A DNA stretch of 32,000 nucleotides from Candidatus Methanophagaceae archaeon (GTDB taxonomy: Archaea; Halobacteriota; Syntropharchaeia; Alkanophagales; Methanospirareceae), in assembly GCA_003194425.1 (NCBI GenBank), contig PQXB01000001.1:610444-642443 (forward strand), written 5' to 3'. Numbering within the stretch: position 1 is the stretch's first letter; each line of letters starts with the position of its first letter. The notes under the pieces were generated by a model, which was not told where the DNA came from, did not search any database, and saw only the letters and a program-made list of their open reading frames with translations. Below, in pieces: positions 1 through 24,836 of the stretch. A program made the translations under genes and the position numbers.

Positions 1-560
1 GTGCTTGAAGTCAAGGTTTGGCTTGCCTTCTTCCGGTAACTGCGCCTCTTCTACCGCTTCTAAATCCTCTATTCTACCGTCGGCAACCTCGAAATATGCC
101 GTGCCAGAGCCTGTGGCTGTTTCCACTGCCTCCTCTCGCGGCACCGTACTCACTCTCGCTGCACCCTCCGCAAAGACGGACTCCCCGCAGAACTCACCAC
201 TAACATTCGCAGTGTTTCTGTCCTCGCCTTCTTCTACTACTGTCGCGTTAAACTCGATGCTCAGGTTCTCGCAGTATTTTAGCTCAAGCGGCGGGAACGA
301 CCACCTACATTCTTTCCCCACCACGGTTGGCTCCACCGCTGCTACTGTTCCGTTTGGATACCGAACCGTTGCGTCGCCTGCCTCGTAGGTCAGGCTCTCC
401 GAGAGAATGTCCTTTACCAGAATATTGGAGAGGTTGCAGGTCTCGTTCTCGTAGCGGTTGTGCAGCCAAATTCTGAACCGCACGGTCTCGTTGACACGAA
501 CAGTGCTCTCGCTCGCCCATTCCACGCTCGTCTCGTTGAAGACTGTTTTGGTTACTTCTA
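1..560 (-). other. DUF11-like 'conserved repeat domain' module, truncated by the window edge
   Basis: Translation is ..IEVTKTVFNETSVEWASESTVRVNETVRFRIWLHNRYENETCNLSNILVKDILSESLTYEAGDATV.. This fits the pattern typical of DUF11 repeats. Assigned from memory. Confidence 0.35.
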
Positions 561-3500
561 TTCTTGGCTTTGTCGGCGGCGGTCCCGGGGCGTCTATTCT
601 TAAATTCGTGCTGTCTGTCCCCGTTAATCCGTCGTTGTCCATTACTTTAAGAGAGACAACGCCGGAATACGCAGCGTCCCAAGTCTTCGACGGCTTCGCA
701 CCAACAGCGTCGTCAAACTCGCCGTCGTCGTCAAAGTCCCATTTATAACTTTCTATCCTCCCGTCCGCGTCGTAAGAACCCGTGCCGTCAAAAACTACTG
801 GAACTCCGACAACACCTGTGTAGGGTCCGTTTGCGTCTGCTACTGGCGGCTCCCCCGAGCCGGCCTCAGCGTCAAAATACTCCGCTCCCGAGACAAGCGC
901 CGTCAAACCGCTCCCGTTTAAATCCGCGTAAAACCCGTAAACCACCGCGTGCACTCCGCTCGTGCCGGTCAAAAGCGTCCTGCTCACTTCTATTTCTGTC
1001 TCGCCTGCTCGCAGCGACTCGTTCTGCTCAAATTCGTCCAGTAACTCGTCCTCAGCGTTGTAAATCTCTGTCCTCAACCGCCCGCCGCTGCCCCCTGAAA
1101 CATTCCGGTTTGACTCTATTTTCAACTTCAGCTCCAAATCCTCCCCTGAAATATATTCTTCCTTATCCAAACTCACTTCCAAAATCCGCGCAGAAAAGCC
1201 GACGACGTCAAAGGGGTGCGCAGAAGAGTAGTTCCCGAACGCGTAGTCAACATAGTAAGTCCCGGACCGCAGTTCGGCGGGCAGCGTGAATTCCAGCGTC
1301 CTCGGACCGTTAACGGTGTCGTTGAAGGTGTAGCCCGGCGCCGTCAGGTTCAACTCGTCTGTCCTCGTAACATCCACTATTTCTATCTTCACATTCTCGC
1401 CCATTTTGTAAACATCCTTCTCCGTGTACAACCGCAACGGAACCCCCGCCTTCTTCTCGTAGACATAAATTGAGTTGAGGTAAAGCGCCCTGCCAGAGTC
1501 GGTGTAGACGGAGTAGAGCATTTTATTGTCGCCCGTGAAGTTAGCAGGCACATTAAAAGTCAGCGTTTTAGACGCAAAACCGGTTAGGTTGAACCCAGTC
1601 GTGTTCTCGTACTCCCCGAACTTCACCCTCGAATACAAACTCAAATCCATATTCCTGTTGTTCTTCACATCCAGTCTCAGCACCGCCACCTCGCCTTCTT
1701 CGTACAACTTCTTGTCCAGCGACGCGTTAACCGAAATGTTCGCACCCTGCACCAAGTAAACGAACTCTCCTCGCTCTCCTCCGCCGTCCAACAACTCGTA
1801 AATCCCCTTGTACCGCTTCTCCTCCAAGTCGTCGGGAATTGTAAAGTTGAAGCTGACATTCTCCTCCGCGCCCGCTCTCACCCAAGTCCTGTTCGTCTCC
1901 TCAAAGTCCGCGACCGAGAGTTTTAACTCCGCCTCGCCTTCCGAACCGCCCTCGTTCTTTACGCAGAAGACGAGTGTAACATTCTCGCCGAGAGTGAAAT
2001 TCCGCTCCGCCTCAGCAGGCAGAACCGCAGCGACAACAAATTCCGCCGGCGACTGGACATTTACCGTGACATTCACCTCCTCGAACGGCGAGCAGTACCG
2101 CAGCAGGTGCGCCCCCTTTGTCAAGTTGAACGAGACGCTCCCGTTTATTTCCCCTCCTTTCGGCACGAAGAAGTGTTTAGTAATTGTTTGCCGCTCGGTA
2201 GAGGAGACGGAGAAAGTGGCGTTGAACTCCGAATCCAGCACGCCCGTGTTATTTATTGTGAACGGGATCTCTACCTCGCCCTCTAAATATATCGGGTCGG
2301 GCGTTAGGTTTATCTTCGAATTCTCTCCAAATATTATTTCCTTTTGGATTGTTTTGTTCACATCGCCAGAAATCGTAACCTTTAGCGTCGTGTTCTTCGT
2401 GATATTTCTCGTGGTCTCTAACAGCCTCGATTCGCCTTCCGGGACCGTTATGTTCCACGTGCTTGTGGTACTACTGTTTAGCCGGACATTTAGGTCAGCG
2501 TATATTTTTCCAATGTTCTCTATCAGCACACCGACATTGAAATCCTCTAAACCAACTACATCCGGCGTGATTATGCTGACATTTATGCTCGCTGCCTCTA
2601 CGCTGACGAAATCTGTAACTGTTACGCCGTCTACCGTTCCTTCAAGCGTAAAGGAGGTTTTTGAAGTTGTGTCCGTTGTAAAGACATAACTTTCACTCGG
2701 ATCGAGCGTAAAAGTATCAGAGAATATCTCTACACCGTCTTTCTTTATTGACAAGTTGTAATCGTCGGTTAGCACTGCGTTATTTCGCACCTCGCCGAAG
2801 ATCTTTACCGACTCCTTCGGCTTGTACACTGCCTTGTCGGTCTCTAAAGTCAGCGAGGTGTTCTTGTCGGTAACGAAGAACGAGTACCGCTCACTGCTGT
2901 TCATTACCTGCGACGAATTTATGTGGTTGTAGAGCGTTGCGTGCAAGTCTAACTTCCCCACGGCGTCGTTTAGGTCGTCCTGCACGCTGAGCTCGGTAAC
3001 CACATCTTTTACGTCGCCCGCTAACAAGTCTACAGGAATGTCCTTCTCCCAAACGAGTTTTGAAAAGCCTTCCTCTGCTTCCGCAGCGTCGTAGAGGCTC
3101 AATATTTCCTCCTTCGAATCCCCGAGCAAGTAGTACAAAATTACTGTCGTGCTCTCTCCTGGGTCTAAATCTGTCTCCTCCCACTCGAAGAATACGCAGC
3201 CGTCGAACGCCCAACCGTTTGGGTCCGCGTCGTCAATAAAAGTGTCGTAAGAAACAAGGTCCCCCCAGGCGTCGGCGTCCCAGCGGTCTGCGGGCGTTGA
3301 GGAGGACTGTGCTAACGCTGCGTAGTGCTCGTCCCACGCAAGCATTATCGGCTTCCCGTCTGTCTCTTCTAAGTAGTCCCAGAAATCATTCTCGGGACTT
3401 CTGTCAACGTCCCAGTCGCAGACACGTCGGTACTTCAAGCCTGAAATCCTTTCAGAGCCGACATTCTTCAGGCTGACCTTCAGAACCACATATTTCTCTG

Positions 3501-6500
3501 ACTTGGGCAGCAGGAAGTCGTGCGTAAGCTCTAAATTCCCTCCAGTGTCTCTCAAAACAACGACATATTCGCCCTCGCTCTCAGCCTCCGTCTTCTCCTC
3601 AGACACGAACTCTAACCCTTCCACTCCGCTGTCCTCGTAACTGTACCCGTCGTGCAGAGTGCCACCCACGAAATAGCCGAAGTAGAATCCTTCGCCCCAC
3701 CAGCCGACTGCTAAGTGTTCGTTGCCGATTGGATATTGAAGCCCGTAGTAAAGATCATAATCACAAATGTGTGCGAAACTGTCTATTCCTAACTTGATGT
3801 AAGTGCCTGTTGTTCCGAAACCAGCAGTCCCGGGAGGAGAGCCTCGCTCGCTCTCTAAACGGCTGACGTTCTGTTCTTTGACTTGGTTTTGAATTTTAGA
3901 GGTGTTGCTACTACTTGAAGCGGGGCGAGGTGCTTTAGTCCCTTCCACCTCCCTCTGTTGCTGCCGGCTGCTCTTTGAGTAGATTTTTAGGTTGAGCGTT
4001 CCGTTTACGACGGCGCCGTCGAGGTTTGCGATCGTGGTCGTGAGGGTTACATTTTCGTCACTGAAGTAGGCTTTTTTGTCGCTTACCGAGGAAAGAACCG
4101 CTTTCAGCCCCGCCACCTCGCAGGTCTTTGACAGTTTTGAGACCTTTCCGGTTCTGTTGTCCTTGCAGGAGACGAGGAGGTTGTAAGTCCCGTTTACGGC
4201 TTGGTCAGGAATCTCGAACGAGACGGTCTCTGTTTCACCCGCCGAGACATTCCCCTGCTGGTCGTTCTCATAAATCACGAACCCTTTCTTGTCAGAGAAT
4301 TTAATGCTGCAGTTGACGAAGGTCGTGTCGACGCCGCCGGTGTTCGAAATCTTAACGCACACATTCTCGCCTGCGTTGTAACTCGTTCTCCCGCCCCCGA
4401 GACAGAGTTCCAAGTTCGATTCAGGGACGAAAAAAGCGTCCTTCTGCGTGGTGTTGTCGACCGCGATTTCAACGAAGACCTCGTGCTTCCCCGCTGCTGC
4501 GTTACCGACATTCAGGTCGTAGCAGATTTCCTCGGTCTCGTTCGGCCGCACCTCCACGAACCGAGCGTCAGCGAACGCCAAGTCGGGAACTGCAGTCCGA
4601 ACCGTCGAGTTCCAGACGCCTGCACCGAGATTCTTTACCTTCAGGAAGAGCCTCAAGTCCTCCCGCACCCTGTAAATCTTGTCCGGGTTGTCAAAGCTCA
4701 GGTCGACGAGGTAGGACTTGAAGACCTCAAAGTAAGTGGAGTCGGAGCCGATTTTCTTCCCCCCCTCACCGCCCTCTTCGTACGCCTCCGCGGTGACGAT
4801 GTAAATGCCTTTTTCCGCGGCTGCAGGCAGCGTGTAGTAGAGCGTTCGGTTCTCTGTCGCACCAGCGCTGAGGTTGACGGTTAGCGTCTCCTCAAAGACC
4901 TTCTTGTTATTTGGGTCAAGCACTTTTACGGTCACTGTTGCGTTGTGGCGGACGCTCTGCCTGTTCTTGAAGTTCAGGAGTACCGGAACTTTCTCTCCAG
5001 ACGCGTACTCGCTCTTCCCTGTTTCTACCTTAATTTCGAGGGTCGGGCGGAAGCAATAAAACGCTCGCGACGCACCGCCCAAATATGTGCGTGAGGTCTC
5101 GTCGCCCTCGTAAAAGTCTGCCCACAGCCGGTCGTAAGAGAAGACAGGGACAGAGTAGACGAAGCTCGCCTCGCCGTGCGCCGGCACTCTCAGCGTCCTG
5201 TGCAGGTTGCTACGGTGACCTGGTCTCGTCGTGCCGGGGCTGCCGTAAATCGGGTCGTGCTTCGCCCAGTAGTTGTGCGGGAACGACCACCAGCAGGTTA
5301 CAGTCTTATCAGTGTCGCCGTGGTTCCAGAGTTGGATTGTGAACGTGCCGTTACTGCCGTAGGCATAATTTTCACTCTTCGAATTCACGCCATAACTTAT
5401 CCCCTTCCCTTTGTAAACCCAACCATCTGGGTTCGCTGCGTATTTGCTCACTGCGAACCGCTGTGTATCACGCACGCGCTGGACTTCTCCGACACTGTCA
5501 TTCGCCAACGAATAATCAAGATGCCATATTCCGAGTTTTGAACGAGCGGTATCAGTGAAATTAACAGCCCTTGTTTCATACGGCGACACAGTAGTTGCTA
5601 CATTTACAGTGTCTACGACATTTTTATCTGGGTCGATTACCGTGAATTTTACTTTATCGGCGGTTAAATCAATATAACTCCCTACATTTATCGGAATATC
5701 CACAGAATCCCCGGAGCCATATTCAGGCAGTTCTTCTGGGTTCTTTGCCCAAACGACCATATCTCGAATAAGATGTTTTCCGTCTGCTGTCGCTTGATGA
5801 TGCCCGTAAGCCCAATCCGTGTAAATTGTGGTTGCAATTACCGTTCCGTTGCCGTATTCATACATCAGCATTGCGGGCATTCCGTTCTTCGTTCTGCTGA
5901 GCAGCACTGTAGCGTCCTCTGAATATTTCGTGAAATAGCCATCGACATTAACATCCGAAATCTCAGAATCCTGACCTGACAGAATCGGGTGGTAAGTGCT
6001 AATGCCGACAGAACGATGATGACAGCTCTGGTCTTCAAGCCAGCCGTAGCCGCTTAAATCTCCAGGCACTGTGTCAAATTCGTAACCGCGCTGTTGTGCC
6101 AAAACGATGAGCGTGCTGCCGTTCCTGACATACTGCTCTAATTTTGATTTGAACGATTTTAACGAACTTAAACCATAAAAACCTCCAGAGGGAATAACGA
6201 AGACAGGGTGTTTATTCAACTCTTCTATAGAAACATCAACATCCACAAAACCACAGGATTCACCAACTTCATTCAAAATGTCCGAGAATTCATGATAAAA
6301 CCCTCTCGAAAGTACCGCAATCTCTGATTCCGATTCGTAACTCCCGCCCCCGTCCCCTGCACCTCGCGGCGAATAAGAGAGAATAGAGACATCGTAGTTG
6401 TCGTCAGGGTGGTCGTTTCCGGGCCCTGGTGGTGTTTCTCCGTCCTCTTCTCTCTCAAACCCTTCAACACTTTCCGTGTCTTCTCCTTCATTTTCTCCAA

Positions 6501-9500
6501 ATAATAGATCCTTGCCCAAACAAAAAAGCGTCCAGAGGAAAGTAGCGCGATTAGGGGAGGGCACAGTACCCCATATTGCGTCGATTAAGTCAATCAAAAA
6601 TGGATAAGCACGGTAGATGAATGGAAGGAGCGTTGTAAAGTAAAAGCTAACTCCAGTAGACCATAACCAGGGTAGCCCAGTACTCCCCAACCATGACAGA
6701 CCTGCTAATAAATAGGGTCCGCCAAACCACGCTGTAACAGCTGTAAGCATTGAGATGCCGGTTGCTATTCCCACTCGTGGCCACCAATATTTAGCGTAAT
6801 GCCAATAAGTTTGAGCGAAATCAACAGTCGCTTTCCATGCAGTCTCTGCCGCTTGCTTTACTGCTTTAGCGGCTTGCACGACTTTCTGCTTTACCACTTT
6901 AGCGGCTTGCACGACTTTCTGCTTTACCACTTTAGCGGCTTGCACGACTTTCTGCTTTACCACTTTAGCGGCTTGCACGACTTTCTGCTTCCCCACTTTA
7001 GCCGCTTTCACCACGGGTTTCACATACATTTTTTTGAAAAAGTACTTGTAAGTCTGCCAGAAGTCACTCAACCACCCATGACCAGATGGGTCTATCAGAT
7101 TAACCGGATTGTTGTCTACATAATTATATAAATTACCCGTAACTCTCATCTCGCTAATCAAAGAATCTTTACTCAAGAACCTGCCAACAGTTGCGTCGTA
7201 ATATCGCGCGCGATAAAAATACAACCCCGTCTCCTCGTCCTGCTCTCTACCTGTAAATTTATAAGGGTTTTCTACCGCCTCTCCTGTCTCCGCTAAAATC
7301 TTGCCAAAAGCATCATATTTGTAACTCGCCACAATGTCCCCATTTACATCGGTCAGCGAGGTTACGCTGCCCAAGCCATCGAAGAGATAATAGAAGGTAG
7401 CACCACCTCTGCTTATGCTAACAGGCTTATCCACGCCAGGACTATGCGTGTACCTCGCTTTTTGCGTGCCTGTGGCATCTAATTCCATTAAAATATCCTC
7501 GGGCTCGTAGAAAATATTCTTAAAATCATAGAGATAATTTGTCGTTCCGTCCTTGTCTGTCTTACTCAATCTGTCTCCAAGTGGCGAGTACTGGTAGGTT
7601 ACCTGGCTCGCATCTGGAAGCGTCACCTTTGTCAGTCTGTTCTCGTAATCGTATTCGTAACGCGTGGTGCCGGATGCGTTTACTTTTCTTATTAAATTCC
7701 CGTTGTTGTCATAATTGTAACTCGTTCCACCCGCAGTTAACAACCGGTCGTCTGCGTCGTAAGTATAATAAGTCGTGCCATTAGCATCTTTCTCTGATAA
7801 TCTATTGCCTACAACATCGTAAGTGTATTGAGTGAACCCCTCACCGAGTGGGTAAGTTACTTTAGTTAGCTGGTCTAACGCGTCGTATTCATATCGTGTA
7901 ATCCCCCCATTTGCTTCGGTCTTGGTCAGCCGATTGCCCATATTATCGTAAGTGTAAGCGTAGCTATCGTAAGTGTAAGCGTAGCTTGATTTTTTATTTA
8001 CAGTTACAAGCTCGAGCATTCTTCCCGCAGCGTCATAAGAGCAGTGTGTAGAAATGCCGTTTTGATATTGCGTCCCTACAGTCCTACCAAGTCTGTCATA
8101 TTGATATTTCGTAACTTCGCCTGAGGGGTTCGTGAGTTTAACCTGCCTATTGAGTGCGTCGTATTCATATCTTGTGATCCCTGCATCTGGGTCCTTCATC
8201 CTCACACGGTTGCCATTTGCATCGTAGCCATATTTTATGGTCTTGGAAAATGCACCGTAATCTCGTTTAACAGACGCGAGCCTGTCGAGTTCGTCGTATG
8301 AAAATTTTGTAACATCGTTTAATCCAAGACCGATATTTGATATTTTAAGGATATTTCCAACAGCGTCGTAGTCCCGTACAACTTTACCGCCATTTGGATA
8401 GGATGTGGTGAGAAGCCTATTCAAAGGGTCGTAGGAATAAGTTGAGATATTTCCATTCGCATCGACGCGGGAGATGAGGTTTCCAACCGCGTCATAGGCG
8501 TATTTTGTCTGATAGCCAAGAGGGGAAATGGTCTTTGTAAGCATATCCAGAGCGTCATATTCATATCTTACGACCTGCCCTTTCGCATCCGTGTGACTTA
8601 ACAGATTCCCGTTTGCATCATAAGAGAACCTCGTCTCACTACCCGAAGGATCGCTAATCTTACTCAGCCTATTCAAAGCGTCATATTCGTATTTCGTCGT
8701 GCGTCCGTTCACATTTTGCACCGAACGGAGGTTGGAGACTGCGTCATAAAAATAACTTGTTGCGTGACCCAGAGGGTCTGTTGTTTTTGTTAGTCTATTT
8801 AGTGCGTCGTAATTGTAGGAGGTAAGATTATTGGTCTTGTCTATTATGTGAATCCGATTTCCCACTGCGTCGTAAACATAACTTTCTCTATTTCCAAGAG
8901 CATCGACAACGGATATTAATCTATCCAAAGCGTCGTAGTTCATCCTTGTCTTGTTGCCCTTCGCATCAGTGTATTCAATTAAGTTCCCTTTTTGATCGTA
9001 TTTAAACGAAGTTGTATTCCCGGATGCGTCTGTAACACCCCCGATTTTGCCAATAACATTTGGAGCAGTGGAGGTGCTGTGTCCATTTGCATCGATGGTA
9101 TTTATTAAGGTGCCTTCTGCATTGTATTCATATTTCGTTTCATTTCCAAGTGCGTCTGTCTCTTTAACGAGGTTGTCATTTGCATCGTATTCGTATTTCG
9201 TTCTGCCTCCATTTGCATCGGTCGTACCTATCAATCTACCAACAGCATCATACGAAAATTCTGTAACATTTCCCGTCGCATCTCTGATGTTAATCAAGTA
9301 TCCGTGCGTGTCGTAACCAAAAAAGGTAGTAAAGCCCCTAAAATTTCTTATACTCGTCATATCTCCAAACGAATCATAACTCATAACCGAATAATTCCCA
9401 GTGGCATCTCTTATTTTAATCAAGTTGAAGTCCGTGTCATACTCAAGGTTAGTGGCAAAACCTCGCGCATTTGTAGTTCTTACAAGCAGAGAAATATACT

Positions 9501-10809
9501 TCAGCTCGGTGTCAATGTTGTTCCAGTCATCGCGTCTTGAATTACCTAAAGCGTCTGTTTCTTTGATTAAATTTCCGTAAGCATCGTATTCATAAGAGGT
9601 GGTCGCTCCATTTGCGTCTGTAAAGCTCTCCAAATTCATATCGCTGTCCCACTGCATCGTTGCAACACCGCCTAAGGCGTCGGTGATTTTTATCGGGTTG
9701 CCGTTTGAATTGTGCTCTATTTTTGTTTTATTACCGGATACGTCGATTACATTGGTGACATTATTTGGGGAATATTTGAGTTCATAAATAGGGAAGTTTT
9801 TGATTATAGTGGCTTTCTTGACGATGCCCCCTCCTCTGTCTGAGCGTACTGTTGCGGCTTGGGCTTGGGCTATGTATTCATACGTATATGTAAGCACGAT
9901 ATCTTTACCCAGAAATTTGCCGTCCTCACCGTAGCGAAACATAGTCTCGCTTTCAACACGATCCTCTTTGATATCTTTAGTTTCAACAGGATACAAACGA
10001 TTCTTCTTATCTTTGAGTTTGTGATTATTATAATATTCGTAGAAAGAAGAATTCCCCAGGGCGTCGGTTACTTCAACAAGGTCTGAAGCAGCGTACTCAT
10101 ATTTTATCTCTCTCCCGAGCGGGTCGGCAACGCTGCTAATTTTGCCGTGCAAATCGTAATTAATATTCAAAAACATCCCAGAATCGTCGGAGACGCGCGT
10201 TAGTCTTCCAAGTAAATTATACTCAAAATTCAAATGATTTCCGTTTTTGTCGGCGATGTTATTTATTCTGCCGTTTGAGGCGAAGTTGTACTTTGAGCCG
10301 TCCGTGAACCAGAGAGAGAAAGAGTCGTCAGGATTTTTCGTTAGCTTTGAGTGAATTCCTGGTGGTGCATTGTATTCGCTTCCTCCCGCGGGAGAGAAGG
10401 TGTGTGCAGAGCCGTCTTCGTCAAAGAAGGTTACCGTGCTGTCCTTATTTTTTATGAGATAAAGGTTGTAGTTGTGTGTCCAGCCGAAGCCGAAGGGACC
10501 GTGCTTTCCACTGTTGTGGCTGTTGTAGGACCTGATGATTTCGATCTCGAAGCCACGTGCTGTTATCGAGATGTCCTTTTCTTCGCCGAGGTAAAGGTTG
10601 CCGTTTGCTGTGTTCACAATCCCGCCCGCGGCGTAGTAGTACCAGGGTTCGTAGCCGGTGTTGCCTGTGTTTGGTGGTGCGTTTAAAGATGCACTCCCTG
10701 TTTTGTTCTCCGCCGTCACCGCGCCCGCGAAGAGCGAGCAGAGCATTATCGCGATGAAGAGTAGCGATGTCAGTTTCGTGTTCAGTTCAATCTTTTCATC
10801 TTCCCCCAT
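1..10809 (-). CDS. Giant secreted RHS/YD-repeat protein that continues into a TM cluster, a GATase-like domain and a long Ig-like/PKD/DUF11-like array. The C-terminus lies beyond the window (>=3,603 codons visible).
   Basis: ATG at 10809-10807 with GGAGGG (10816-10821) 6 nt upstream. Codon phase is plus positions 3n+1..3n+3. I reverse-translated more than 25 sixty-nt lines spread over the region (1-60, 601-900, 3661-3960, 4981-5040, 5281-5760, 6001-7260, 10621-10809) and found no in-phase TTA/CTA/TCA. The ORF track lists no closed minus-strand ORF in this phase anywhere in 1-10809. It also omits the other edge-truncated ORF at 31480+, which is what one open frame running off the window predicts. 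The + strand ORFs listed here are low-complexity antisense shadows. Confidence 0.9.
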   Translation of the reverse strand, partial: MGEDEKIELNTKLTSLLFIAIMLCSLFAGAVTAENKTGSASLNAPPNTGNTGYEPWYYYAAGGIVNTANGNLYLGEEKDISITARGFEIEIIRSYNSHNSGKHGPFGFGWTHNYNLYLIKNKDSTVTFFDEDGSAHTFSPAGGSEYNAPPGIHSKLTKNPDDSFSLWFTDGSKYNFASNGRINNIADKNGNHLNFEYNLLGRLTRVSDDSGMFLNINYDLHGKISSVADPLGREIKYEYAASDLVEVTDALGNSSFYEYYNNHKLKDKKNRLYPVETKDIKEDRVESETMFRYGEDGKFLGKDIVLTYTYEYIAQAQAATVRSDRGGGIVKKATIIKNFPIYELKYSPNNVTNVIDVSGNKTKIEHNSNGNPIKITDALGGVATMQWDSDMNLESFTDANGATTSYEYDAYGNLIKETDALGNSRRDDWNNIDTELKYISLLVRTTNARGFATNLEYDTDFNLIKIRDATGNYSVMSYDSFGDMTSIRNFRGFTTFFGYDTHGYLINIRDATGNVTEFSYDAVGRLIGTTDANGGRTKYEYDANDNLVKETDALGNETKYEYNAEGTLINTIDANGHSTSTAPNVIGKIGGVTDASGNTTSFKYDQKGNLIEYTDAKGNKTRMNYDALDRLISVVDALGNRESYVYDAVGNRIHIIDKTNNLTSYNYDALNRLTKTTDPLGHATSYFYDAVSNLRSVQNVNGRTTKYEYDALNRLSKISDPSGSETRFSYDANGNLLSHTDAKGQVVRYEYDALDMLTKTISPLGYQTKYAYDAVGNLISRVDANGNISTYSYDPLNRLLTTSYPNGGKVVRDYDAVGNILKISNIGLGLNDVTKFSYDELDRLASVKRDYGAFSKTIKYGYDANGNRVRMKDPDAGITRYEYDALNRQVKLTNPSGEVTKYQYDRLGRTVGTQYQNGISTHCSYDAAGRMLELVTVNKKSSYAYTYDSYAYTYDNMGNRLTKTEANGGITRYEYDALDQLTKVTYPLGEGFTQYTYDVVGNRLSEKDANGTTYYTYDADDRLLTAGGTSYNYDNNGNLIRKVNASGTTRYEYDYENRLTKVTLPDASQVTYQYSPLGDRLSKTDKDGTTNYLYDFKNIFYEPEDILMELDATGTQKARYTHSPGVDKPVSISRGGATFYYLFDGLGSVTSLTDVNGDIVASYKYDAFGKILAETGEAVENPYKFTGREQDEETGLYFYRARYYDATVGRFLSKDSLISEMRVTGNLYNYVDNNPVNLIDPSGHGWLSDFWQTYKYFFKKMYVKPVVKAAKVGKQKVVQAAKVVKQKVVQAAKVVKQKVVQAAKVVKQKVVQAAKAVKQAAETAWKATVDFAQTYWHYAKYWWPRVGIATGISMLTAVTAWFGGPYLLAGLSWLGSTGLPWLWSTGVSFYFTTLLPFIYRAYPFLIDLIDAIWGTVPSPNRATFLWTLFCLGKDLLFGENEGEDTESVEGFEREEDGETPPGPGNDHPDDNYDVSILSYSPRGAGDGGGSYESESEIAVLSRGFYHEFSDILNEVGESCGFVDVDVSIEELNKHPVFVIPSGGFYGLSSLKSFKSKLEQYVRNGSTLIVLAQQRGYEFDTVPGDLSGYGWLEDQSCHHRSVGISTYHPILSGQDSEISDVNVDGYFTKYSEDATVLLSRTKNGMPAMLMYEYGNGTVIATTIYTDWAYGHHQATADGKHLIRDMVVWAKNPEELPEYGSGDSVDIPINVGSYIDLTADKVKFTVIDPDKNVVDTVNVATTVSPYETRAVNFTDTARSKLGIWHLDYSLANDSVGEVQRVRDTQRFAVSKYAANPDGWVYKGKGISYGVNSKSENYAYGSNGTFTIQLWNHGDTDKTVTCWWSFPHNYWAKHDPIYGSPGTTRPGHRSNLHRTLRVPAHGEASFVYSVPVFSYDRLWADFYEGDETSRTYLGGASRAFYCFRPTLEIKVETGKSEYASGEKVPVLLNFKNRQSVRHNATVTVKVLDPNNKKVFEETLTVNLSAGATENRTLYYTLPAAAEKGIYIVTAEAYEEGGEGGKKIGSDSTYFEVFKSYLVDLSFDNPDKIYRVREDLRLFLKVKNLGAGVWNSTVRTAVPDLAFADARFVEVRPNETEEICYDLNVGNAAAGKHEVFVEIAVDNTTQKDAFFVPESNLELCLGGGRTSYNAGENVCVKISNTGGVDTTFVNCSIKFSDKKGFVIYENDQQGNVSAGETETVSFEIPDQAVNGTYNLLVSCKDNRTGKVSKLSKTCEVAGLKAVLSSVSDKKAYFSDENVTLTTTIANLDGAVVNGTLNLKIYSKSSRQQQREVEGTKAPRPASSSSNTSKIQNQVKEQNVSRLESERGSPPGTAGFGTTGTYIKLGIDSFAHICDYDLYYGLQYPIGNEHLAVGWWGEGFYFGYFVGGTLHDGYSYEDSGVEGLEFVSEEKTEAESEGEYVVVLRDTGGNLELTHDFLLPKSEKYVVLKVSLKNVGSERISGLKYRRVCDWDVDRSPENDFWDYLEETDGKPIMLAWDEHYAALAQSSSTPADRWDADAWGDLVSYDTFIDDADPNGWAFDGCVFFEWEETDLDPGESTTVILYYLLGDSKEEILSLYDAAEAEEGFSKLVWEKDIPVDLLAGDVKDVVTELSVQDDLNDAVGKLDLHATLYNHINSSQVMNSSERYSFFVTDKNTSLTLETDKAVYKPKESVKIFGEVRNNAVLTDDYNLSIKKDGVEIFSDTFTLDPSESYVFTTDTTSKTSFTLEGTVDGVTVTDFVSVEAASINVSIITPDVVGLEDFNVGVLIENIGKIYADLNVRLNSSTTSTWNITVPEGESRLLETTRNITKNTTLKVTISGDVNKTIQKEIIFGENSKINLTPDPIYLEGEVEIPFTINNTGVLDSEFNATFSVSSTERQTITKHFFVPKGGEINGSVSFNLTKGAHLLRYCSPFEEVNVTVNVQSPAEFVVAAVLPAEAERNFTLGENVTLVFCVKNEGGSEGEAELKLSVADFEETNRTWVRAGAEENVSFNFTIPDDLEEKRYKGIYELLDGGGERGEFVYLVQGANISVNASLDKKLYEEGEVAVLRLDVKNNRNMDLSLYSRVKFGEYENTTGFNLTGFASKTLTFNVPANFTGDNKMLYSVYTDSGRALYLNSIYVYEKKAGVPLRLYTEKDVYKMGENVKIEIVDVTRTDELNLTAPGYTFNDTVNGPRTLEFTLPAELRSGTYYVDYAFGNYSSAHPFDVVGFSARILEVSLDKEEYISGEDLELKLKIESNRNVSGGSGGRLRTEIYNAEDELLDEFEQNESLRAGETEIEVSRTLLTGTSGVHAVVYGFYADLNGSGLTALVSGAEYFDAEAGSGEPPVADANGPYTGVVGVPVVFDGTGSYDADGRIESYKWDFDDDGEFDDAVGAKPSKTWDAAYSGVVSLKVMDNDGLTGTDSTNLRIDAPGPPPTKPRIEVTKTVFNETSVEWASESTVRVNETVRFRIWLHNRYENETCNLSNILVKDILSESLTYEAGDATVRYPNGTVAAVEPTVVGKECRWSFPPLELKYCENLSIEFNATVVEEGEDRNTANVSGEFCGESVFAEGAARVSTVPREEAVETATGSGTAYFEVADGRIEDLEAVEEAQLPEEGKPNLDFKH
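600..830 (-). other. PKD domain
   Basis: Translation is ADANGPYTGVVGVPVVFDGTGSYDADGRIESYKWDFDDDGEFDDAVGAKPSKTWDAAYSGVVSLKVMDNDGLTGTDSTNL. This matches the classic PKD signature (SYDxDG..xYxWDFGDG ... V.D..G). Confidence 0.8.
850..5700 (-). other. Array of Ig-like beta-sandwich (CARDB/MG-like) modules, interrupted by an unassigned W/Y/G-rich domain at about 3200-3850 and an S/Q-rich linker at about 3850-3960
   Basis: A recurrent pattern of the type LEIKVETGKSEYASGEKVPVLLNFKNRQSV..TVTVKVLDPNNK..LSAGATENRTL was read in several spot translations. Module boundaries are not resolved. Confidence 0.5.
5740..6320 (-). other. Alpha/beta domain resembling a class-I glutamine-amidotransferase-like / ThuA-like fold
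   Basis: Translation is ..HPVFVIPSGGFYGLSSLKSFKSKLEQYVRNGSTLIVLAQQRGYEFDTVPGDLSGYGWLEDQSCHHRSVGI..GNGTVIATTIYTDWAYGHH..MVVWAK. The resemblance is from memory of the family pattern, not from a search. Confidence 0.3.
6500..6790 (-). other. Trp/Gly-rich hydrophobic cluster (about 3 predicted TM helices) directly after the repeat
   Basis: Translation is ..YWWPRVGIATGISMLTAVTAWFGGPYLLAGLSWLGSTGLPWLWSTGVSFYFTTLLPFIYRAYPFLIDLIDAIWG..FLWTLFCLG. The TM call is by eye only. Confidence 0.5.
6865..6996 (-). repeat. 33-bp tandem repeat x4 (three perfect copies and one variant) inside the giant ORF, encoding (KQKVVQAAKVV)n
   Basis: Unit tttagcggcttgcacgactttctgctttaccac occurs at 6865-6897, 6898-6930 and 6931-6963. 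A variant copy lies at 6964-6996, with a degenerate tail to about 7017. The repeat is in phase with the ORF. Confidence 0.95.
7078..10660 (-). other. RHS/YD-repeat shell plus RHS repeat-associated core domain
   Basis: Dozens of YD units were read directly (..TKYEYDANDNLVKETDALGNETKYEYNAEG.., ..RYEYDALDQLTKVTYPLGEG..). The N-terminal RHS lead-in is present (..RSYNSHNSGKHGPFGFGWTHNYN..). The core end is KFTGREQDEETGLYFYRARYYDATVGRFLSKDS..NLYNYVDNNPVNLIDPSGH (7078-7260), with DPSG at 7081-7092. Confidence 0.9.
7944..7985 (-). repeat. Perfect 21-bp tandem duplication inside a YD repeat (SYAYTYD x2)
   Basis: tatcgtaagtgtaagcgtagc occurs at 7944-7964 and again at 7965-7985. Confidence 0.95.
10711..10809 (-). 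other. N-terminal signal peptide / membrane anchor of the giant protein
   Basis: Translation is MGEDEKIELNTKLTSLLFIAIMLCSLFAGAVTA|ENKTG: a charged n-region, a ~20-aa hydrophobic core and an A-x-A-like VTA site. Confidence 0.7.
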
Positions 10810-11233: not shown

Positions 11234-13468
11234 ATGATTCAACGAGTCCTTAACAGGTGGGCGGAGATTTCGAAGCGCTACTACGCGGTGATTATTTTGG
11301 TCGCGGTTGTTGTCGGTGCCGTCTCGTTTGTGAGTGCGAGCGAGACCGAGATTTCTACAAAATACTTCGGCTTCTTCTACCCCGAGACGAATTATATGGA
11401 AGAGATTCGGTTCATTCAGTCCGAGTTTCCGGGGACGCAGACCGCCCAGATTTTAATCGCCGTGGACAGAATTAACGCAAGGAGCGTGCTTGAGCCAGAC
11501 CTGCTCGAAATGAGAGCGGACTTGGTAGAGGCGGTCTCCGATGTTGCGGGGGTGAAGAGCGTTGAGAGCGTGCTCGACCTCGGAGGGACGAAAAATGAAA
11601 TTCTTTCAAGACCGAGCGAGCAGCGCAGTCCGTTCGTTGACGAGAAGTTGCGGCACTCTCTCGTCACCGTGAAGTTGGACGCAACCGAGATTCCAGATAG
11701 CAGGGAATTAGTAGAGACCTTTCAGAAGACGATAAAAAAGGTGGACGAGGTGCGAGGTTCGTCGGTTACGCTAACGGGCCAAATTGCGTGGGGCTACGCG
11801 TGGGACCGGGCGATAAGAAGTGGATTTTCAAGGTCGCTCCTCGTCGGGTTCGTAGCGATTTTCATCCTCCTCTTTCTGCTCTTCAAAAGCCCGACGACGC
11901 CGTTTGTCGTTCTCTTTCCGGTGCTGGTTGCGGTGCTTGCGAGCTTCGGGCTGATGCATTTCATCCAAATCCCGCTCAACTTCTTGACCGCGATGTTCGG
12001 CGCCGTAACGCTCGGGCTCGGCGTTGACTACGCTATTCATTTAGTTCACCGGCTACCACGAAGAGTCGGCGCGGGGAGGGCAGTAGCAGGGGGAAACAAC
12101 GAGCGGGCGTTGAACATTGCGTGTATGAAAATTGGGCGAAACACGCTCGTTACGAGTTTGACGACGATGGCTGCGTTCTCTTCGATGGCTCTTTCGCCGA
12201 TTCGGATGCTTGGGGAGTACGGAATAATGTCCTTCATCGCAATCTCGTTCTCCGCACTCTCGGTCTTCCTCTTTGTCCCTTCCCTGCTCGTGCTTGAAGA
12301 GAAAATCGGGTGGGGTGTGAGAGGAGGGAGAAGGACGTTGGACTTTTCGGGGCTCGCGCGGTTGCTCGGCACCGAGCGGCTCATTTCACGAACGATGGAA
12401 CGCGTGGCGGATTTTTCGCTGAAACGCTCGGTCGGTGCGGTTCTTATCATCGGGCTCACGCTACTCCCGATTCTTGCGGGCGTGGGAATGATTGAAAGCA
12501 GGAGCGAGCAGGAGATGTGGATTCCGGAGGGCGACCCGCTGATGGTGGCGTGGCGGGTCGTGGACGAGGAATTCTGCGATTACGAGTACTCCACGATTCT
12601 GGTGCGGGCGGACGACATAAGAACGCCGGAGATGATGAAAGCGCTGGCGGAGGTTGAAGCGAGCGTTCGGGAGGTGCCGGGGGTTGTAGCGTTGTCTTCT
12701 TGAGGGAGAAGGAGGAGGCGAGATTCGTGCGGAGAAGAGGGAGATTGAGAGGCGGATTGCGGCGATTCCCGCGGACTTGCGAGAGAGTTTTGTTACGAAC
12801 GACTACACGGCAGCGCTGATTATCATAAAAGCCGACGAAGAGATTGAAGAGAAGCAGGTGCGGGAGATTGACGATGCGATTCTCTTTGTAGAGACGCCAG
12901 GCGACGCCAGTTTCAGGCACGCGAGCTTTTCTACGCTCTTTTCCCAGATGGACAGAATGATGGAAGAGAGTCAGGCGAAGACGACCGGGGTAAGCCTCGT
13001 TTTAGTCTTTGCGATTCTGTTCTCGTTTTTCAGAACCCCCTTTCGGATAATTCTCGCGTTTGCACCCGTCCTGTTCGCGATAATTTACGCTCTCGGCACA
13101 ATGGGGCTCGTCGGAATTCCGTTTACGCCGCTCACGGTGATGATAATGACGATTCTAATCGGGCTTGGAACCGACTACTCGGTCCATTTCGTCTCACGCT
13201 ACCGAGAGGAGCGGGCGAAGGGGTTTGAGACGCAGGCGGCGCTGCAGACGACGACGCTGACCGTGGGTTCGGCGATTCTGACGGCGTCGCTCTGACGACG
13301 CTCTTCGGCTTTTTGGCGCTTACCACGATGTCGCTCGTGCCTGTGCAGGACTTCGGCAGGATTGCAGCGGTGGGGCTCGTTTACGCTGCGTTCTTAACGC
13401 CTGTCGTCGTCTCGCTCGGGATTCTTGCGCAGGAGCGGGTGGCTCAGGCTCTAAAACGAAGATTTTGA
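11234..13468 (+). pseudogene. RND-superfamily (MMPL/COG1033-type) exporter, split into three frame segments
   Basis: Piece 1 is 11234-12703 (phase 2), piece 2 is open from 12690 to 13295 (phase 0), and piece 3 is 13295-13468 (phase 2). Both halves carry the family motif (GLGVDYAIHLVHR.. and GLGTDYSVHFVSRYREE..). Read-through is colinear: ..VPGVVALSS / LLEGEGGGEIRAEK.. and ..GSAILTASL / TTLFGFLALTTMS... Confidence 0.7.
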
Positions 13469-18312: not shown

Positions 18313-18921
18313 TTACTCTTCTCGTTTTGGTCGAAAATTTTCCACAGCTTTGATTGTTCGTCGTAAACTGAGTGAAGTGTGCATAGCTTCATTTGGGTTC
18401 CAGACCTTTTCAACGAAAGATATTAAACAACCGTTGTAGTTTGGACCCTGCTTTGCGGTACTTCCTCGGGTTGGCACGATATCTTCCTGCAATTTCCGTT
18501 TGCGTGATTTCCTGACGAGATTGATCAGATATTCCTTAGGATCATCGATCTCATCAACATCCACAGGAACCTGCTCCTTCTTGATACCAAGAAATTTGGC
18601 GAAATGATCGCGGTCTGCAAGAACCCAGGATTCGACCTCCCGCACAGCCACACGAAAGAGCAGATTGTGATGCGGGGTAGAAACTGACAGCCACTTTTTT
18701 ATGAGCTTTGGCGGACACTCCTCTCTGTCAAGGTCTGTCAGCACTAGAAAAGGCATTCCTTTTGCGGCGTTATTGAATCCGCGGATGTTCTTTTTAAGAT
18801 AACCAAATCCCCTTTTTTTGTAACAGTCGCTCACTGTGTACTTGGCGGGAAGCAGTTTTCTAAGAACAGCTTCGCTTAAGTCGTCTTCGACAGCAAGGTT
18901 GATTGATATGTCCAAGTTCAT
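18313..18921 (-). CDS. TOPRIM/OLD-nuclease-like small protein (DUF4276 / RloB / DUF4435-type)
   Basis: 202 aa with an N-terminal acidic motif (NLAVEDDLSEAVL), a DxD-type motif (FLVLTDLDREECP) and REVESWVLAD. This order and spacing match split TOPRIM partners of ABC ATPases. The start is directly adjacent to the upstream stop (18921/18922). Confidence 0.6.
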   Translation of the reverse strand: MNLDISINLAVEDDLSEAVLRKLLPAKYTVSDCYKKRGFGYLKKNIRGFNNAAKGMPFLVLTDLDREECPPKLIKKWLSVSTPHHNLLFRVAVREVESWVLADRDHFAKFLGIKKEQVPVDVDEIDDPKEYLINLVRKSRKRKLQEDIVPTRGSTAKQGPNYNGCLISFVEKVWNPNEAMHTSLSLRRTIKAVENFRPKREE

Positions 18922-20100
18922 TTAAAAAAGCTCCGTCTGATAATCCGTCTGATAAAAATCTTTTATATTCTTTGGTACAGTTTTCGGCAAAACCGCGTCA
19001 GCTATGCTCAAACCCCCTTCCAGCAAATCCCGGATTTCCCGGATCGAGGAAGCTACCTTGACCTCGGTTCCCTCTGCACTTGGCGAAAGGATTAAGACCT
19101 CCTCGCCACCGATCCCTTTATCTGACAACAGTTCTGCACTGTGGGTGCTGAGGATCACCTGCCTTCTCTGCCGAGATTTTTTCTGTTGCTGTAATCGGTG
19201 CATCAAAGCGGGCAATTTACTGACAATCCCTGAATTCAACGACAGCTCTGGCTCCTCCAGCAGCAGCAAAGAATCTCCGTCCAAGAGTGACCAGAGTAAC
19301 CCGATCAGACGCAAAGTTCCATCAGAAAACTGGTCTTCACGTTGCTTAACTCCTCTTCGTCTCCAGTGCTCATAAGTTGCTTCTAGATGTGGAAAGCCTA
19401 CTTCGTCCTTTGTCTCAGTAAGATTCTTCAATTGTGGAACCGCTACACGCAATGCCTCTTCAATCTTTTTTAGGAGGCGTTCACGCTTTTTCTCAGTTGT
19501 TCTGGCAACACGCTCCAGAAAGTTCCGCCCGTACGGATCTCCTGGAATGGTCGGTCCTGGAAAAGCACTGGGGTTGCGAACAAGTTGCGGGATGAGATGC
19601 AAGTACTGAACAGAGTCAAAAAACTTTGAAATTTCTCTAAACTCTTGATTAAGGCTAATCTGCTCGAGATGTGTCTGGGTCAGGCGTAGTTTGTCCTGCT
19701 CATCATTAGAGTCGGGTCGAGTGAGTATCTGCTGGTTCCCCTTCCACACCTTCTCGTAAGTAAGGAGCGTGTCGTGGCGACCACGAACCTCCTGCTTAAT
19801 TCCTAATGCATATTTCCACAACGTCTCTTTAGTAGCGGATTTTGCAAGGGAAACTTCTATTTCAACATTGGGCTTCTTGCGTGCTGCGAGGCAGCGTATC
19901 TTGGATAAACCTCCGCGGTCACTGATTGCTTTCTGCAGACCACCTCCTGGCTTGGCGATGTCTCGGAGGAAGCGGAAGACATCAAGGAAATTTGATTTAC
20001 CTGAAGCGTTGGGACCAACCAGAAAGACACGATTGCCCAGTTCAACATCGACTGATTGGAAATTGCGCCAGTTTTTCAGGACGATGTGGGAGACGATCAT
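18922..20100 (-). CDS. ABC/SMC-like AAA ATPase (AAA_15/AAA_21-type), partner of the TOPRIM-like protein
   Basis: Walker A is VGPNASGKSN (19990-20019). A signature-like FSDGTLRLIGLL is present. Walker B is SLLLLEEPE and the H-loop is LSTHS. Confidence 0.85.
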   Translation of the reverse strand: MIVSHIVLKNWRNFQSVDVELGNRVFLVGPNASGKSNFLDVFRFLRDIAKPGGGLQKAISDRGGLSKIRCLAARKKPNVEIEVSLAKSATKETLWKYALGIKQEVRGRHDTLLTYEKVWKGNQQILTRPDSNDEQDKLRLTQTHLEQISLNQEFREISKFFDSVQYLHLIPQLVRNPSAFPGPTIPGDPYGRNFLERVARTTEKKRERLLKKIEEALRVAVPQLKNLTETKDEVGFPHLEATYEHWRRRGVKQREDQFSDGTLRLIGLLWSLLDGDSLLLLEEPELSLNSGIVSKLPALMHRLQQQKKSRQRRQVILSTHSAELLSDKGIGGEEVLILSPSAEGTEVKVASSIREIRDLLEGGLSIADAVLPKTVPKNIKDFYQTDYQTELF

Positions 20101-24428: not shown

Positions 24429-24836
24429 ATGGTAAAAGAGCGAACATTTTTGATGATTAAACCGGAGGGAGTGGAGCAGGGGCTTGTCGGCGAGATAATC
24501 GGCAGATTTGAGCGGCGGGGCTTTCGGGTGGTTGCACTCAAACTCTCAACGCTGGGCAGGGAGTTGGCGGAGAAGCAGTACGAGGAGCATCGCGGAAAGG
24601 AGTTCTTTGAGGACTTGGTTGCTTACATTTGCTCTGCTCCGACGGTTTCGGTGGTCGTTGAAGGAGAGAACGCGGTTGCGACGGCGAGGGAAATGGTGGG
24701 TGCTACGGACCCGAAACTTGCAGCCCCGGGAACCGTGCGCGGCGACTACGGGTTGGACGTGCAGCGAAACACGATTCACGCCTCGGACTCAGAAGCGTCG
24801 GCGAAGCGCGAAATTTCTCTGCATTTCGGATTATGA
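24429..24836 (+). CDS. ndk: Nucleoside diphosphate kinase
   Basis: [12 protein letters not shown].., ..[18 protein letters not shown].., NTIHASDS (catalytic His). Confidence 0.95.

Follow-up and report, generated by a model that had tools for sequence, protein, structure and literature searches.

A giant ANME-1 archaeal protein with an N-terminal RHS/YD shell, a variable mid-chain segment and a long Ig-like stalk

The giant gene and the domains of its product

The DNA analysed here is a stretch of 32,000 nt from contig PQXB01000001.1 (the window; positions are counted along the whole stretch). It contains a giant gene on the minus strand, the product of which begins with an RHS/YD shell. The proteins encoded next to this gene are identical to PXF51408.1–PXF51414.1, encoded on a 1.19-Mb contig of a Methanophagales (ANME-1) metagenome-assembled genome (MAG). 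In the current view, RHS/YD shells are capsules, and the last 100–300 residues of the protein form their cargo. The first-pass annotation of the window, made from the sequence alone, had reported such a shell at the start of an archaeal open reading frame (ORF) of more than 3,600 codons, which stays open for more than 2,350 codons beyond the core and leaves the window without a stop. All three statements hold: the frame lacks a stop from 10842 down to base 1 (3,614 in-window codons), the first methionine at 10809 leaves 3,603 codons inside the window, and 2,359 of these follow the core. The annotation had also recommended extending the ORF on the source contig. Two contigs from JGI metagenomes, L001 (Ga0164310_10015351) and L002 (Ga0164318_10005956), match the first 51 bases of the window exactly and extend past it; on both, the true stop lies 363 nt (121 codons) beyond base 1. 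The complete protein therefore has 3,724 aa, and 2,480 codons separate the core from the stop. An exact-match scan of the GTDB representative genomes with the same 51 bases gave no match.

The gene is present not only in the source MAG but also in two assemblies that were obtained independently, from different samples and with different pipelines. L002 covers nearly all of it, is 99% identical to the window and remains in frame throughout. L004 (ENA k141_492008) is likewise 99% identical and in frame, and encodes a single 3,708-aa product with matches to DUF6531, RHS and TEN_YD-shell. Compared with the window, both possess two fewer copies of a 33-bp repeat (66 nt) and one in-frame 18-nt indel. 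A stop, a frameshift or an assembly break between 5300 and 7100, named in the annotation as grounds for doubt, was not seen in L002 and L004, which keep the frame through the junction of the RHS part and its extension. A further contig, L003 (Ga0073580_130941), has the same gene with a block identity of 97–100% and at least 11 internal deletions or duplications of 35–325 nt, many of them out of frame. It was regarded as either a decayed allele or a poor assembly (or one of amplified DNA) and left out of the evidence on the junction. The giant ORF is a genuine single gene from a member of the Methanophagales (ANME-1). Its features are as follows; a slash within a sequence marks a cut position.

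1..10809, minus strand: in-window part of the giant gene, codons 1–3603 of 3,724
10711..10809, minus strand: signal peptide, aa 1–33; h-region LLFIAIMLCSLFAGAV, then VTA/EN; Kyte-Doolittle peak 2.36
10396..10620, minus strand: DUF6531, aa 64–138, a domain typical N-terminal to RHS shells (Pfam PF20148, E 9.6e-17)
7318..10392, minus strand: YD/RHS repeat shell, aa ~140–1164 (RHS_repeat, TIGR01643, PDB 7q97)
7078..7317, minus strand: Rhs-associated core (aspartyl-protease plug), aa 1165–1244 (TIGR03696 Rhs_assc_core, E 2e-24)
6433..7077, minus strand: variable post-core segment, the candidate cargo, aa 1245–1459 (~215 aa); its only relatives are alleles of the same gene and the protein P0023
6854..7011, minus strand: 33-bp tandem repeat, 4.8 copies, encoding the basic 11-aa unit AAKVVKQKVVQ
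6514..6762, minus strand: aromatic/Gly-rich hydrophobic block, aa ~1350–1432
6385..6432, minus strand: conserved boundary motif PPGPGNDHPDDNYDVS, aa 1460–1475, which opens the shared stalk module
5731..6330, minus strand: domain with a class-I glutamine amidotransferase (GATase)-like fold, aa ~1494–1693 (AlphaFold2 (AF2) and Foldseek)
5443..5736, minus strand: first immunoglobulin (Ig)/CARDB-like module, aa 1692–1789 (AF2 model; hidden Markov model built from the protein itself, self-HMM)
5380..5440, minus strand: putative recombination junction, codon ~1800 (step in the GC content of third codon positions, GC3, from ~0.44 to ~0.72, and break in identity)
3856..5412, minus strand: Ig-like array 1 (MG2/CARDB-type), aa 1800–2318 (MG2 E 5e-11; self-HMM)
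2890..3822, minus strand: Ser/Gln-rich linker and domain (~300 aa), aa ~2330–2640; no significant Pfam or NCBIfam match
862..2856, minus strand: Ig-like array 2 with 7 modules, aa 2652–3316 (self-HMM)
604..852, minus strand: PKD domain, aa 3320–3402 (PKD_4, E 1.2e-12)
193..516, minus strand: weak DUF11-like/isopeptide-type domain, aa 3432–3539 (DUF11 E 9e-5; TIGR04226 E 2e-5)
1..24, minus strand: start of choice-of-anchor U, aa 3596–3689 (NF041766, E 4e-31); the rest lies on L001 and L002

The head of the protein is a complete RHS/YD shell, consisting of plug, repeats and aspartyl-protease core. Its N-terminus resembles a signal peptide (MGEDEKIELNTKLTSLLFIAIMLCSLFAGAVTA/EN), which is one of only two protein segments with a 19-residue Kyte-Doolittle mean of at least 1.6 and is common to the relatives P0023 and P0008 and, in nearly the same form, to the non-RHS protein P0001. 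DUF6531 is read here as the likely N-terminal plug of the shell. RHS_repeat (PF05593) matches 17 stretches (E 9e-138) and YD_repeat_2x (TIGR01643) gives an E-value of 4e-106; together with the core match, RHS families are thus recovered in 7078–10660, where the annotation had placed the shell. About 1,100 aa can be aligned to solved shells, namely 7q97 (E 2e-75), 8h8a, Tse5 (8cp6), a bacterial teneurin-like protein (TLP), teneurins and SGS1. The alignments to the solved Rhs shells end at aa 1243–1246, which is the canonical autocleavage position; here the core ends with DPSG/H, and DPSG (aa 1240–1243, window 7092–7081) lies exactly where it had been annotated. The catalytic Arg/Asp/Asp residues are aligned with the arginine of YRARYYD and the aspartates of SKDS and IDPSG (positions according to PMC13018210 and PMC8636562). 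No delivery domain of the PAAR/VgrG, TcB, LXG or a similar type was found; upstream of the repeats there are only the Sec-type signal peptide and DUF6531. A Pfam scan of the whole protein gave no match to NHL or FN domains. Within the RHS repeats, a perfect 21-bp tandem duplication (7944–7986) encodes SYAYTYD twice; L003 is without 66 nt at this place.

The post-core segment is followed by the conserved PGNDHPDDNYDVS motif, with which the stalk module begins, and then by the GATase-fold domain. About 12 related Ig-like modules of ~100 aa were found, in line with the more than 10 noted before; one seed alone yielded 6 matches at E <0.02 in the initial pass, and the E-values of the iterated self-HMM passes are circular. 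A relative, P0003, is 65% identical over aa 2584–2902. Among the domains previously proposed for the C-terminal part, PKD is recovered at E 1e-12, whereas the match to DUF11 is weak (E 9e-5), its 23.2 bits falling short of the cut-off of 24.6. The protein ends outside the window, as read on L001 and L002, with PVPEF-NLFGLLGLVGVLSVVLAAALL-RVRKD, a tail of PEF-CTERM-like form with ~22 hydrophobic residues in the middle. Among the relatives, three haloarchaeal proteins have a clear PGF-CTERM signal at the end, and several other members a C-terminal hydrophobic helix with a basic tail. No archaeosortase gene was found in the 32-kb window. Judged from these sequence features, the protein is probably Sec-exported, located at the cell surface and anchored via its C-terminus, with the RHS head at the distal end.

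The post-core segment and the family of the stalk module

The segment between core and boundary motif (aa 1245–1459) matches no family in Pfam and NCBIfam, and the same holds for other cargo types (eight tested in Pfam, five in NCBIfam). A word-indexed search for homologues of the cargo found only a fragment of the same gene; P0023 surfaced only in the exhaustive module search described below. The basic 11-aa repeat of the first-pass annotation is borne out by the 33-bp repeat at 6854–7011. AAKVVKQKVVQ occurs in 5 copies in the window and in 3 copies in L002, L003, L004 and P0023; in place of further copies, P0023 has extra ones of a second 11-aa unit, GLxWLGGTGVA, and the post-core segments of the window and of P0023 differ by whole 11-residue repeats. 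The basic part (aa 1245–1330) has a net charge of +17. For the repeat stretch, the helical hydrophobic moment amounts to 0.40 at 98–100 degrees (z 4.4 versus shuffles), AF2 models the helix with a predicted local distance difference test (pLDDT) score of ~75, and the 11-mer repeat thus reads as a putative amphipathic helix. In the adjoining part (aa 1331–1432), 24% of the residues are aromatic, among them 9 Trp; an acidic linker closes the segment. For the cargo, AF2 predicts an all-helical structure (pLDDT 51). With ~215 aa and a mass that we estimate at ~24 kDa, it agrees with the dimensions of known shells: the cavity of Rhs1 comprises 28,000 cubic-angstrom with a stated cargo limit of <25 kDa (PMC8636562), and the shell of SGS1 buries ~230 aa of predicted transmembrane (TM) helices (PMC9935623).

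The hydrophobic block had been annotated as a TM cluster. This is only partly right: the block is hydrophobic, aromatic and Gly-rich, but the 19-residue Kyte-Doolittle mean never exceeds 1.36, which is below the usual TM threshold. A true multi-pass membrane domain, embedded in mid-chain with RHS and stalk outside and three ties to the membrane, would be in line with the initial impression; P0008, P0021 and P0025, which each contain one post-core segment with a mean of 2.1–2.5, also point in this direction. The maximum of 1.36 in the window protein, the haloarchaeal members, which are non-hydrophobic and Gly/Cys-rich at the same place, and the precedent of SGS1, whose comparable predicted TM helices proved to be buried in the shell (PMC9935623), make such a domain highly improbable, and on these three grounds we rejected it.

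Relatives of the region behind the core are numerous. A search with aa 1245–2281 gave 21 proteins, in which homology starts at aa 1430–1470, i.e. at or just before the HPDDN motif. When the module alone was used as query in an exhaustive phmmer search, 886 representative clusters were matched; the E-value is ≤1e-10 for 732, and many measure 2,500–4,800 aa. It had been asked whether the RHS part and the Ig array occur separately. The stalk module indeed stands behind non-RHS heads as well (thioredoxin, M23 peptidase, amidase_3, glycosidase-like and others), and these carriers are 35–77% identical over aa 1449–1800. The order of RHS head, NPxxxxDPxG, 139–287 aa, and motif plus module was found in 16 of the 165 fetched relatives; at least 16 clusters with this architecture span Methanophagales, Methanomicrobia and Halobacteria, and the complete RHS-headed members comprise 3,457–4,806 aa. 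Examples are:

WP_247730448.1, Halovivax limisalsi, 4,430 aa
WP_276257590.1, Haloglomus litoreum, 4,260 aa
HDS44597.1, Methanomicrobia
MCK4735244.1, Methanophagales; the cluster includes a 3,817-aa member

Two members are from cultured haloarchaea with closed genomes, and in the closed Halovivax genome the architecture is encoded by one 4,457-aa gene among housekeeping genes. The occurrence in at least 16 clusters and this Halovivax gene indicate that the union of RHS head and stalk is old and recurrent and not an accident of one genome. The gene belongs to an unannotated archaeal family and is not unique. The first-pass annotation had considered that many homologues of the same architecture might already be known: the clusters do exist, and some homologues are in RefSeq under the name 'NosD domain-containing protein', but no description of the architecture was found in the literature searched, which did not cover the archaeal survey of Makarova et al. 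2019. Zhang et al. 2012 noted only classical RHS toxins, in Methanosarcina (PMC3482391). One of the module carriers, P0001 (ENA contig, 1,450 aa), combines nearly the same signal peptide and the same stalk module with a different, Cys-rich non-RHS head, which is consistent with head swapping within one lineage.

The stalk module comprises ~340 aa and is modelled by AF2 (pLDDT 76.5) as an alpha/beta domain plus a beta-sandwich. Foldseek matches its first part at E 1e-8 to 1e-10 to a GH42 domain and to the class-I-GATase-like structures 2a9v, 3fij and 2gk3, so that the earlier label 'GATase-like' is correct for the fold; Pfam and NCBIfam contain no family matching the domain. Within the family, the motifs IPSGG, QQxG, GWxEDQSC, VDGYF and SRTKNG and individual Q, D, C, D, R and D residues are invariant. 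The boundary motif, PG(N/G)D(H/K)PD(D/E)Nx(D)VS (PGxDHPDDNxDVS for short), is present in all relatives, whatever their head, and is predicted to be disordered (pLDDT ~30). It might serve for processing, for metal binding or for recombination. In the first case it might be cut, perhaps by the adjacent GATase-fold domain, such that the N-terminal head is freed; with RHS heads, cuts at DPSG/H and at the motif would release a closed Rhs capsule with a free ~215-aa cargo. The motif lies exactly between the variable heads (RHS, M23, amidase, thioredoxin) and the constant module, its predicted disorder would suit a processing site, and the neighbouring domain contains an invariant Cys (in EDQSC) and invariant Asp residues together with a His (in TYHP) that ≥90% of the sequences share. 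Moreover, the topological problem of a chain that has to leave the shell would disappear. However, neither Cys nor Ser is conserved at the nucleophile elbow, where the Cys of the GATase triad Cys-His-Glu would be expected: the family reads x-Q-Q-H/R-G behind the strand TLIVL/F, an assignment based on sequence and secondary structure only, and the invariant Cys sits elsewhere. The best structural matches are non-catalytic GH42 domains, and the motif may simply be a conserved linker or a site of metal binding or recombination. Release of the head by cleavage at this motif is thus quite unlikely.

In order to compare the cargo with its flanks, identities were determined for the last 400 aa of the shell, the post-core segment and the module, and are given in this order:

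Methanogen/ANME-type members, mean: 45% / 9% / 49%
Window protein versus P0025: 57% / 2% / 64%
Window protein versus P0023, its closest relative: 88% / 62% / 89%
Haloarchaeal members, mean: 46% / 34% / 50%

In the methanogen/ANME-type proteins the post-core segment looks like an internal polymorphic cassette between conserved flanks. The suggestion to search for a small immunity-like ORF downstream was followed without success: none that is plausible exists in the ~1.1 kb past the stop on L001, nor beside the Halovivax gene. The ORFs seen on L001, a truncated flavodoxin-like one of 61 aa (336–521, minus strand) and a convergent one of 98 aa with a signal peptide and a CARDB-like start (792–1088, plus strand), are not immunity-like.

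A junction that points to recombination lies further downstream. GC3 is ~0.65 in codons 1–140, similar to host genes (0.64–0.70), ~0.44 in codons 150–1780 and ~0.6–0.8 from codon 1790 onwards. The identity to P0023 amounts to 82–95% over most of aa 1–1800 (57–72% in aa 201–400 and in the dip at the cargo) and falls from ~88% to 43–44% directly after the conserved FAVSKYAxNPxGWVYxGK. The head-and-neck block (codons ~150–1800, i.e. shell, cargo, GATase-fold domain and first Ig module) thus sits on different stalks in the two lineages. We infer that the giant gene is a recombinant, in which this block was joined to a different stalk at the conserved sequence near 5,400. A deletion in L003 (5443 to 5117) abuts the GC3 junction.

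The same step might be taken as a sign of an artefact or accident: the assembly might be chimeric, or an RHS toxin gene might very recently have been fused by read-through to a neighbouring adhesin gene. The sharp changes of GC3 and identity at ~5,400 would fit, as would L003 with its at least 11 deletions and duplications, one of which abuts this position. The joining of RHS part and extension must have been a different event, since the break is situated within the shared, conserved module, 1.7 kb past the end of the RHS part. In addition, L002 and L004 have the same junctions in frame, the order of RHS head and module recurs in at least 16 clusters including the closed genome of an isolate, and all 3,724 codons stay open. 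Both a chimeric assembly and a recent fusion at the RHS end, the latter having been proposed in the first-pass annotation, were rejected on the strength of the two in-frame assemblies, the clusters and the single Halovivax gene; an explanation of this kind is scarcely credible.

A contact-exposed tip as a possible function

With respect to the meaning of the architecture, the first-pass annotation had offered two options. The recent fusion has been dealt with above; the other, an RHS head on a surface fibre with a short cargo, is favoured by the length of the post-core segments (139–287 aa) and by the anchor-like C-terminus (choice-of-anchor U and the PEF-CTERM-like tail). Its premise, according to which the segment behind the core is always short, terminal and enclosed, was too strict: in teneurins (PMC5851990) and in mosquito SGS1 (PMC9935623), the chain is threaded out of the shell. 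The size of the segment and these two precedents lead us to infer that the post-core segment lies inside the shell and that the chain exits through the shell wall. A hydrophobic cargo has a precedent, too, as the Rhs protein Tse5 carries a pore-forming one (PMC10684867).

The explanation that in our view accounts best for the findings, and which we hold to be probable, is an anchored giant surface protein, whose RHS shell surrounds the post-core segment and whose membrane-active tip is exposed on contact. The shell would enclose only the ~215-aa segment, i.e. the amphipathic 11-mer helix with its charge of +17 and the subsequent aromatic/Gly-rich hydrophobic helical block. The chain would then leave the shell in the style of teneurins and SGS1 and continue into the stalk, whose length we estimate from the number of modules at ~50–60 nm and which would be tethered by a PEF-CTERM-type anchor. 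In this arrangement, the shell would serve as a protective cap over the membrane-active tip, which would be kept away from the surface of the producer. Contact with a neighbouring cell would expose the tip, possibly after autocleavage at DPSG/H, and the exposed tip could insert into the neighbour's membrane or perturb it; the outcome might be antagonism or attachment.

Several observations weigh against this explanation. Rhs cores possess two canonical DPxGL motifs (PMC8636562); here the first one is degenerate (DSLIS), and the residue preceding the canonical cut position is His instead of Leu and varies among relatives (H/E/M/F/L), so that autocleavage at DPSG/H is uncertain. The Kyte-Doolittle maximum of the hydrophobic block (1.36) does not reach the TM threshold, and the confidence of the AF2 model is below 50 past the first 70 residues of the cargo. 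As to the anchor, the PEF-CTERM-like tail matches no NCBIfam model, and P0219, a Methanophagales relative of 3,817 aa, ends without a hydrophobic anchor. An immunity-like ORF was found neither in the ~1.1 kb past the stop nor at the Halovivax locus. Finally, the post-core segments of the haloarchaeal members, which are rich in Gly and Cys, make up a single family with moderate conservation (34% identity), and this suits a structural internal linker better than a polymorphic toxin. The idea that the haloarchaeal cargos are halocin-C8-like (derived from bioRxiv 10.64898/2026.07.27.741052) gave no such match in NCBIfam, where the presence of the respective model in the library is unconfirmed.

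Some of these observations are what one would expect of a non-toxic, teneurin-like protein for adhesion or recognition. The YD shell would then form the tip of an adhesin and offer a rigid surface for interactions, sealed by the post-core segment as an uncleaved internal linker before the chain exits, and the protein might mediate cell–cell or cell–matrix contact in ANME-1 filaments or consortia. The conservation of the haloarchaeal segment, the lack of an immunity gene downstream on L001 and beside the Halovivax gene, the degenerate first DPxGL and the variable residue in front of the cut are in agreement with such a role. What speaks against it is, above all, the identity of only 2–9% in the cargo compared with 45–65% in its flanks among the Methanophagales-type relatives, because a pure linker should co-vary with the shell and not be swapped wholesale. 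Furthermore, the cargo, with its cationic amphipathic helix in front of a hydrophobic block, looks membrane-active, the Arg/Asp/Asp positions of the core are kept, and neither an FN-plug nor NHL was detected. We therefore regard a purely adhesive protein as rather unlikely, although it is the most serious competitor of the membrane-active tip.

The contact-exposed tip can be combined with the variation of head and cargo to a more far-reaching proposal, which is possible but, taken as a whole, on the doubtful side. According to this proposal, the family would be an unrecognised class of archaeal contact-dependent device. The RHS capsule might act as a safety cap that can be taken off the membrane-active tip, the tip being carried by an archaeosortase-anchored stalk with a length of tens of nanometres. 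The cargo might be an internal polymorphic cassette bounded by the recombination motifs NNPxxxxDPxG and PGxDHPDDNxDVS, with head-and-neck blocks being shuffled between stalks. ANME-1 archaea might use the device in order to kill or harpoon neighbours in methane-oxidising consortia, and the stalk might be a platform that displays or releases other effector heads such as peptidoglycan hydrolases and thioredoxins, in archaea and in some bacteria.

Independently of this proposal, the order of the elements departs from the usual one: a shell at the start, the variable cargo in mid-chain, and then more than 2,200 residues of a stalk that is probably anchored. Provided that the shell encloses the cargo and the chain is threaded out, the solution realized in teneurins and SGS1 would extend to prokaryotic surface proteins of opposite polarity, and an internal cassette between two conserved motifs would be a new way to build polymorphic effectors. 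Moreover, a widespread module (motif, GATase-fold domain and Ig arrays; ~730 clusters), for which no Pfam or NCBIfam model exists, carries interchangeable N-terminal heads. The relations of ANME-1 archaea with partner bacteria and competitors shape methane oxidation. To our knowledge, almost nothing is known experimentally about contact-dependent interactions in archaea, and the family is a testable candidate for such interactions, ANME-1 included.

Further features of the window are located upstream of the giant gene. An MMPL/RND-type transporter is encoded at 11234–13295 (plus strand) by two separate ORFs (489 aa and 172 aa), whereas L004 contains one 598-aa gene; this suggests that the window version is a pseudogene or contains a frameshift or a sequence error. 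An AAA_21-type ATPase and a DUF4276 protein are encoded as a pair at 18313–20100 (minus strand) and match the PADLOC candidate defence system HEC-01A/HEC-01B (E 8e-161 and 1e-69). Since the neighbouring genes have a higher GC3 than this pair (0.46–0.50), a small defence island may have been acquired here. Two adjacent DUF3344 genes at 24833–27632 (plus strand), the first of which contains a CARDB domain, suggest that further surface proteins may be encoded nearby.

Comparison with known systems

Among the closest known systems are the bacterial Rhs polymorphic toxins (Rhs1/RhsA/RhsP and Tse5 of type VI secretion systems, T6SS; WapA of Gram-positive bacteria). WapA-type proteins are Sec-exported, as the archaeal protein probably is. 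Shell and core are homologous (7q97, 8h8a, 8cp6), the core ends at a canonical DPxG with Arg/Asp/Asp retained, and in the archaeal family a variable segment of 139–287 aa follows. In the bacterial toxins, however, the short cargo (~9–25 kDa) ends the protein, whereas the archaeal segment is internal and succeeded by 2,260 residues. The archaeal protein also differs by the absence of a PAAR, VgrG or TcB-type delivery domain, by the lack of a detected adjacent immunity gene, by the degenerate first DPxGL and by the His in front of the cut position. The cargo of Tse5 is a hydrophobic pore former that inserts into membranes (PMC10684867).

Teneurins and bacterial TLPs likewise contain a YD shell in an extracellular protein tethered to the membrane, and they are related by sequence (9pt5, E 7e-45; teneurin-2/4, ~1e-13). 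The polarity is inverted: teneurins have an N-terminal anchor and a shell near the C-terminus, the archaeal protein an N-terminal shell and a probable C-terminal anchor. Only ~200 aa follow the exit from the shell in teneurins, compared with a stalk of ~2,260 aa here. Neither an FN-plug nor an NHL beta-propeller was detected in the archaeal protein, and the homology is confined to YD shell and core. In bacterial TLPs, the cargo lies wholly inside the shell and is accompanied by immunity genes (PMC13018210), in contrast to the arrangement proposed here.

The mosquito proteins SGS1 and SGS4 are giant YD-shell proteins, too (~3,364 aa). In SGS1, ~230 aa of predicted TM helices situated right after the aspartyl-protease site are buried in the shell, and a loop passing through a mid-shell opening links them to a C-terminal structure outside (PMC9935623). 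The core is homologous (8fjp, E 1e-12 and 2e-14 in two alignments). Unlike the archaeal protein, SGS1 and SGS4 are eukaryotic, soluble and unanchored, their shell is C-terminal, and only a short moiety follows the exit.

At its other end, the archaeal protein resembles the archaeosortase substrates (PGF/PEF-CTERM): a tripartite tail follows choice-of-anchor U (E 4e-31), and three haloarchaeal relatives have a clear PGF-CTERM, although the tail of the window protein itself has no HMM match. We know of no described archaeosortase substrate with an RHS head. The non-RHS proteins share the module of PGxDHPDDNxDVS motif, GATase-fold domain and Ig array; what distinguishes them is the head, which is a thioredoxin, an M23 peptidase, an amidase_3, a glycosidase-like or an uncharacterised domain in place of the RHS shell.

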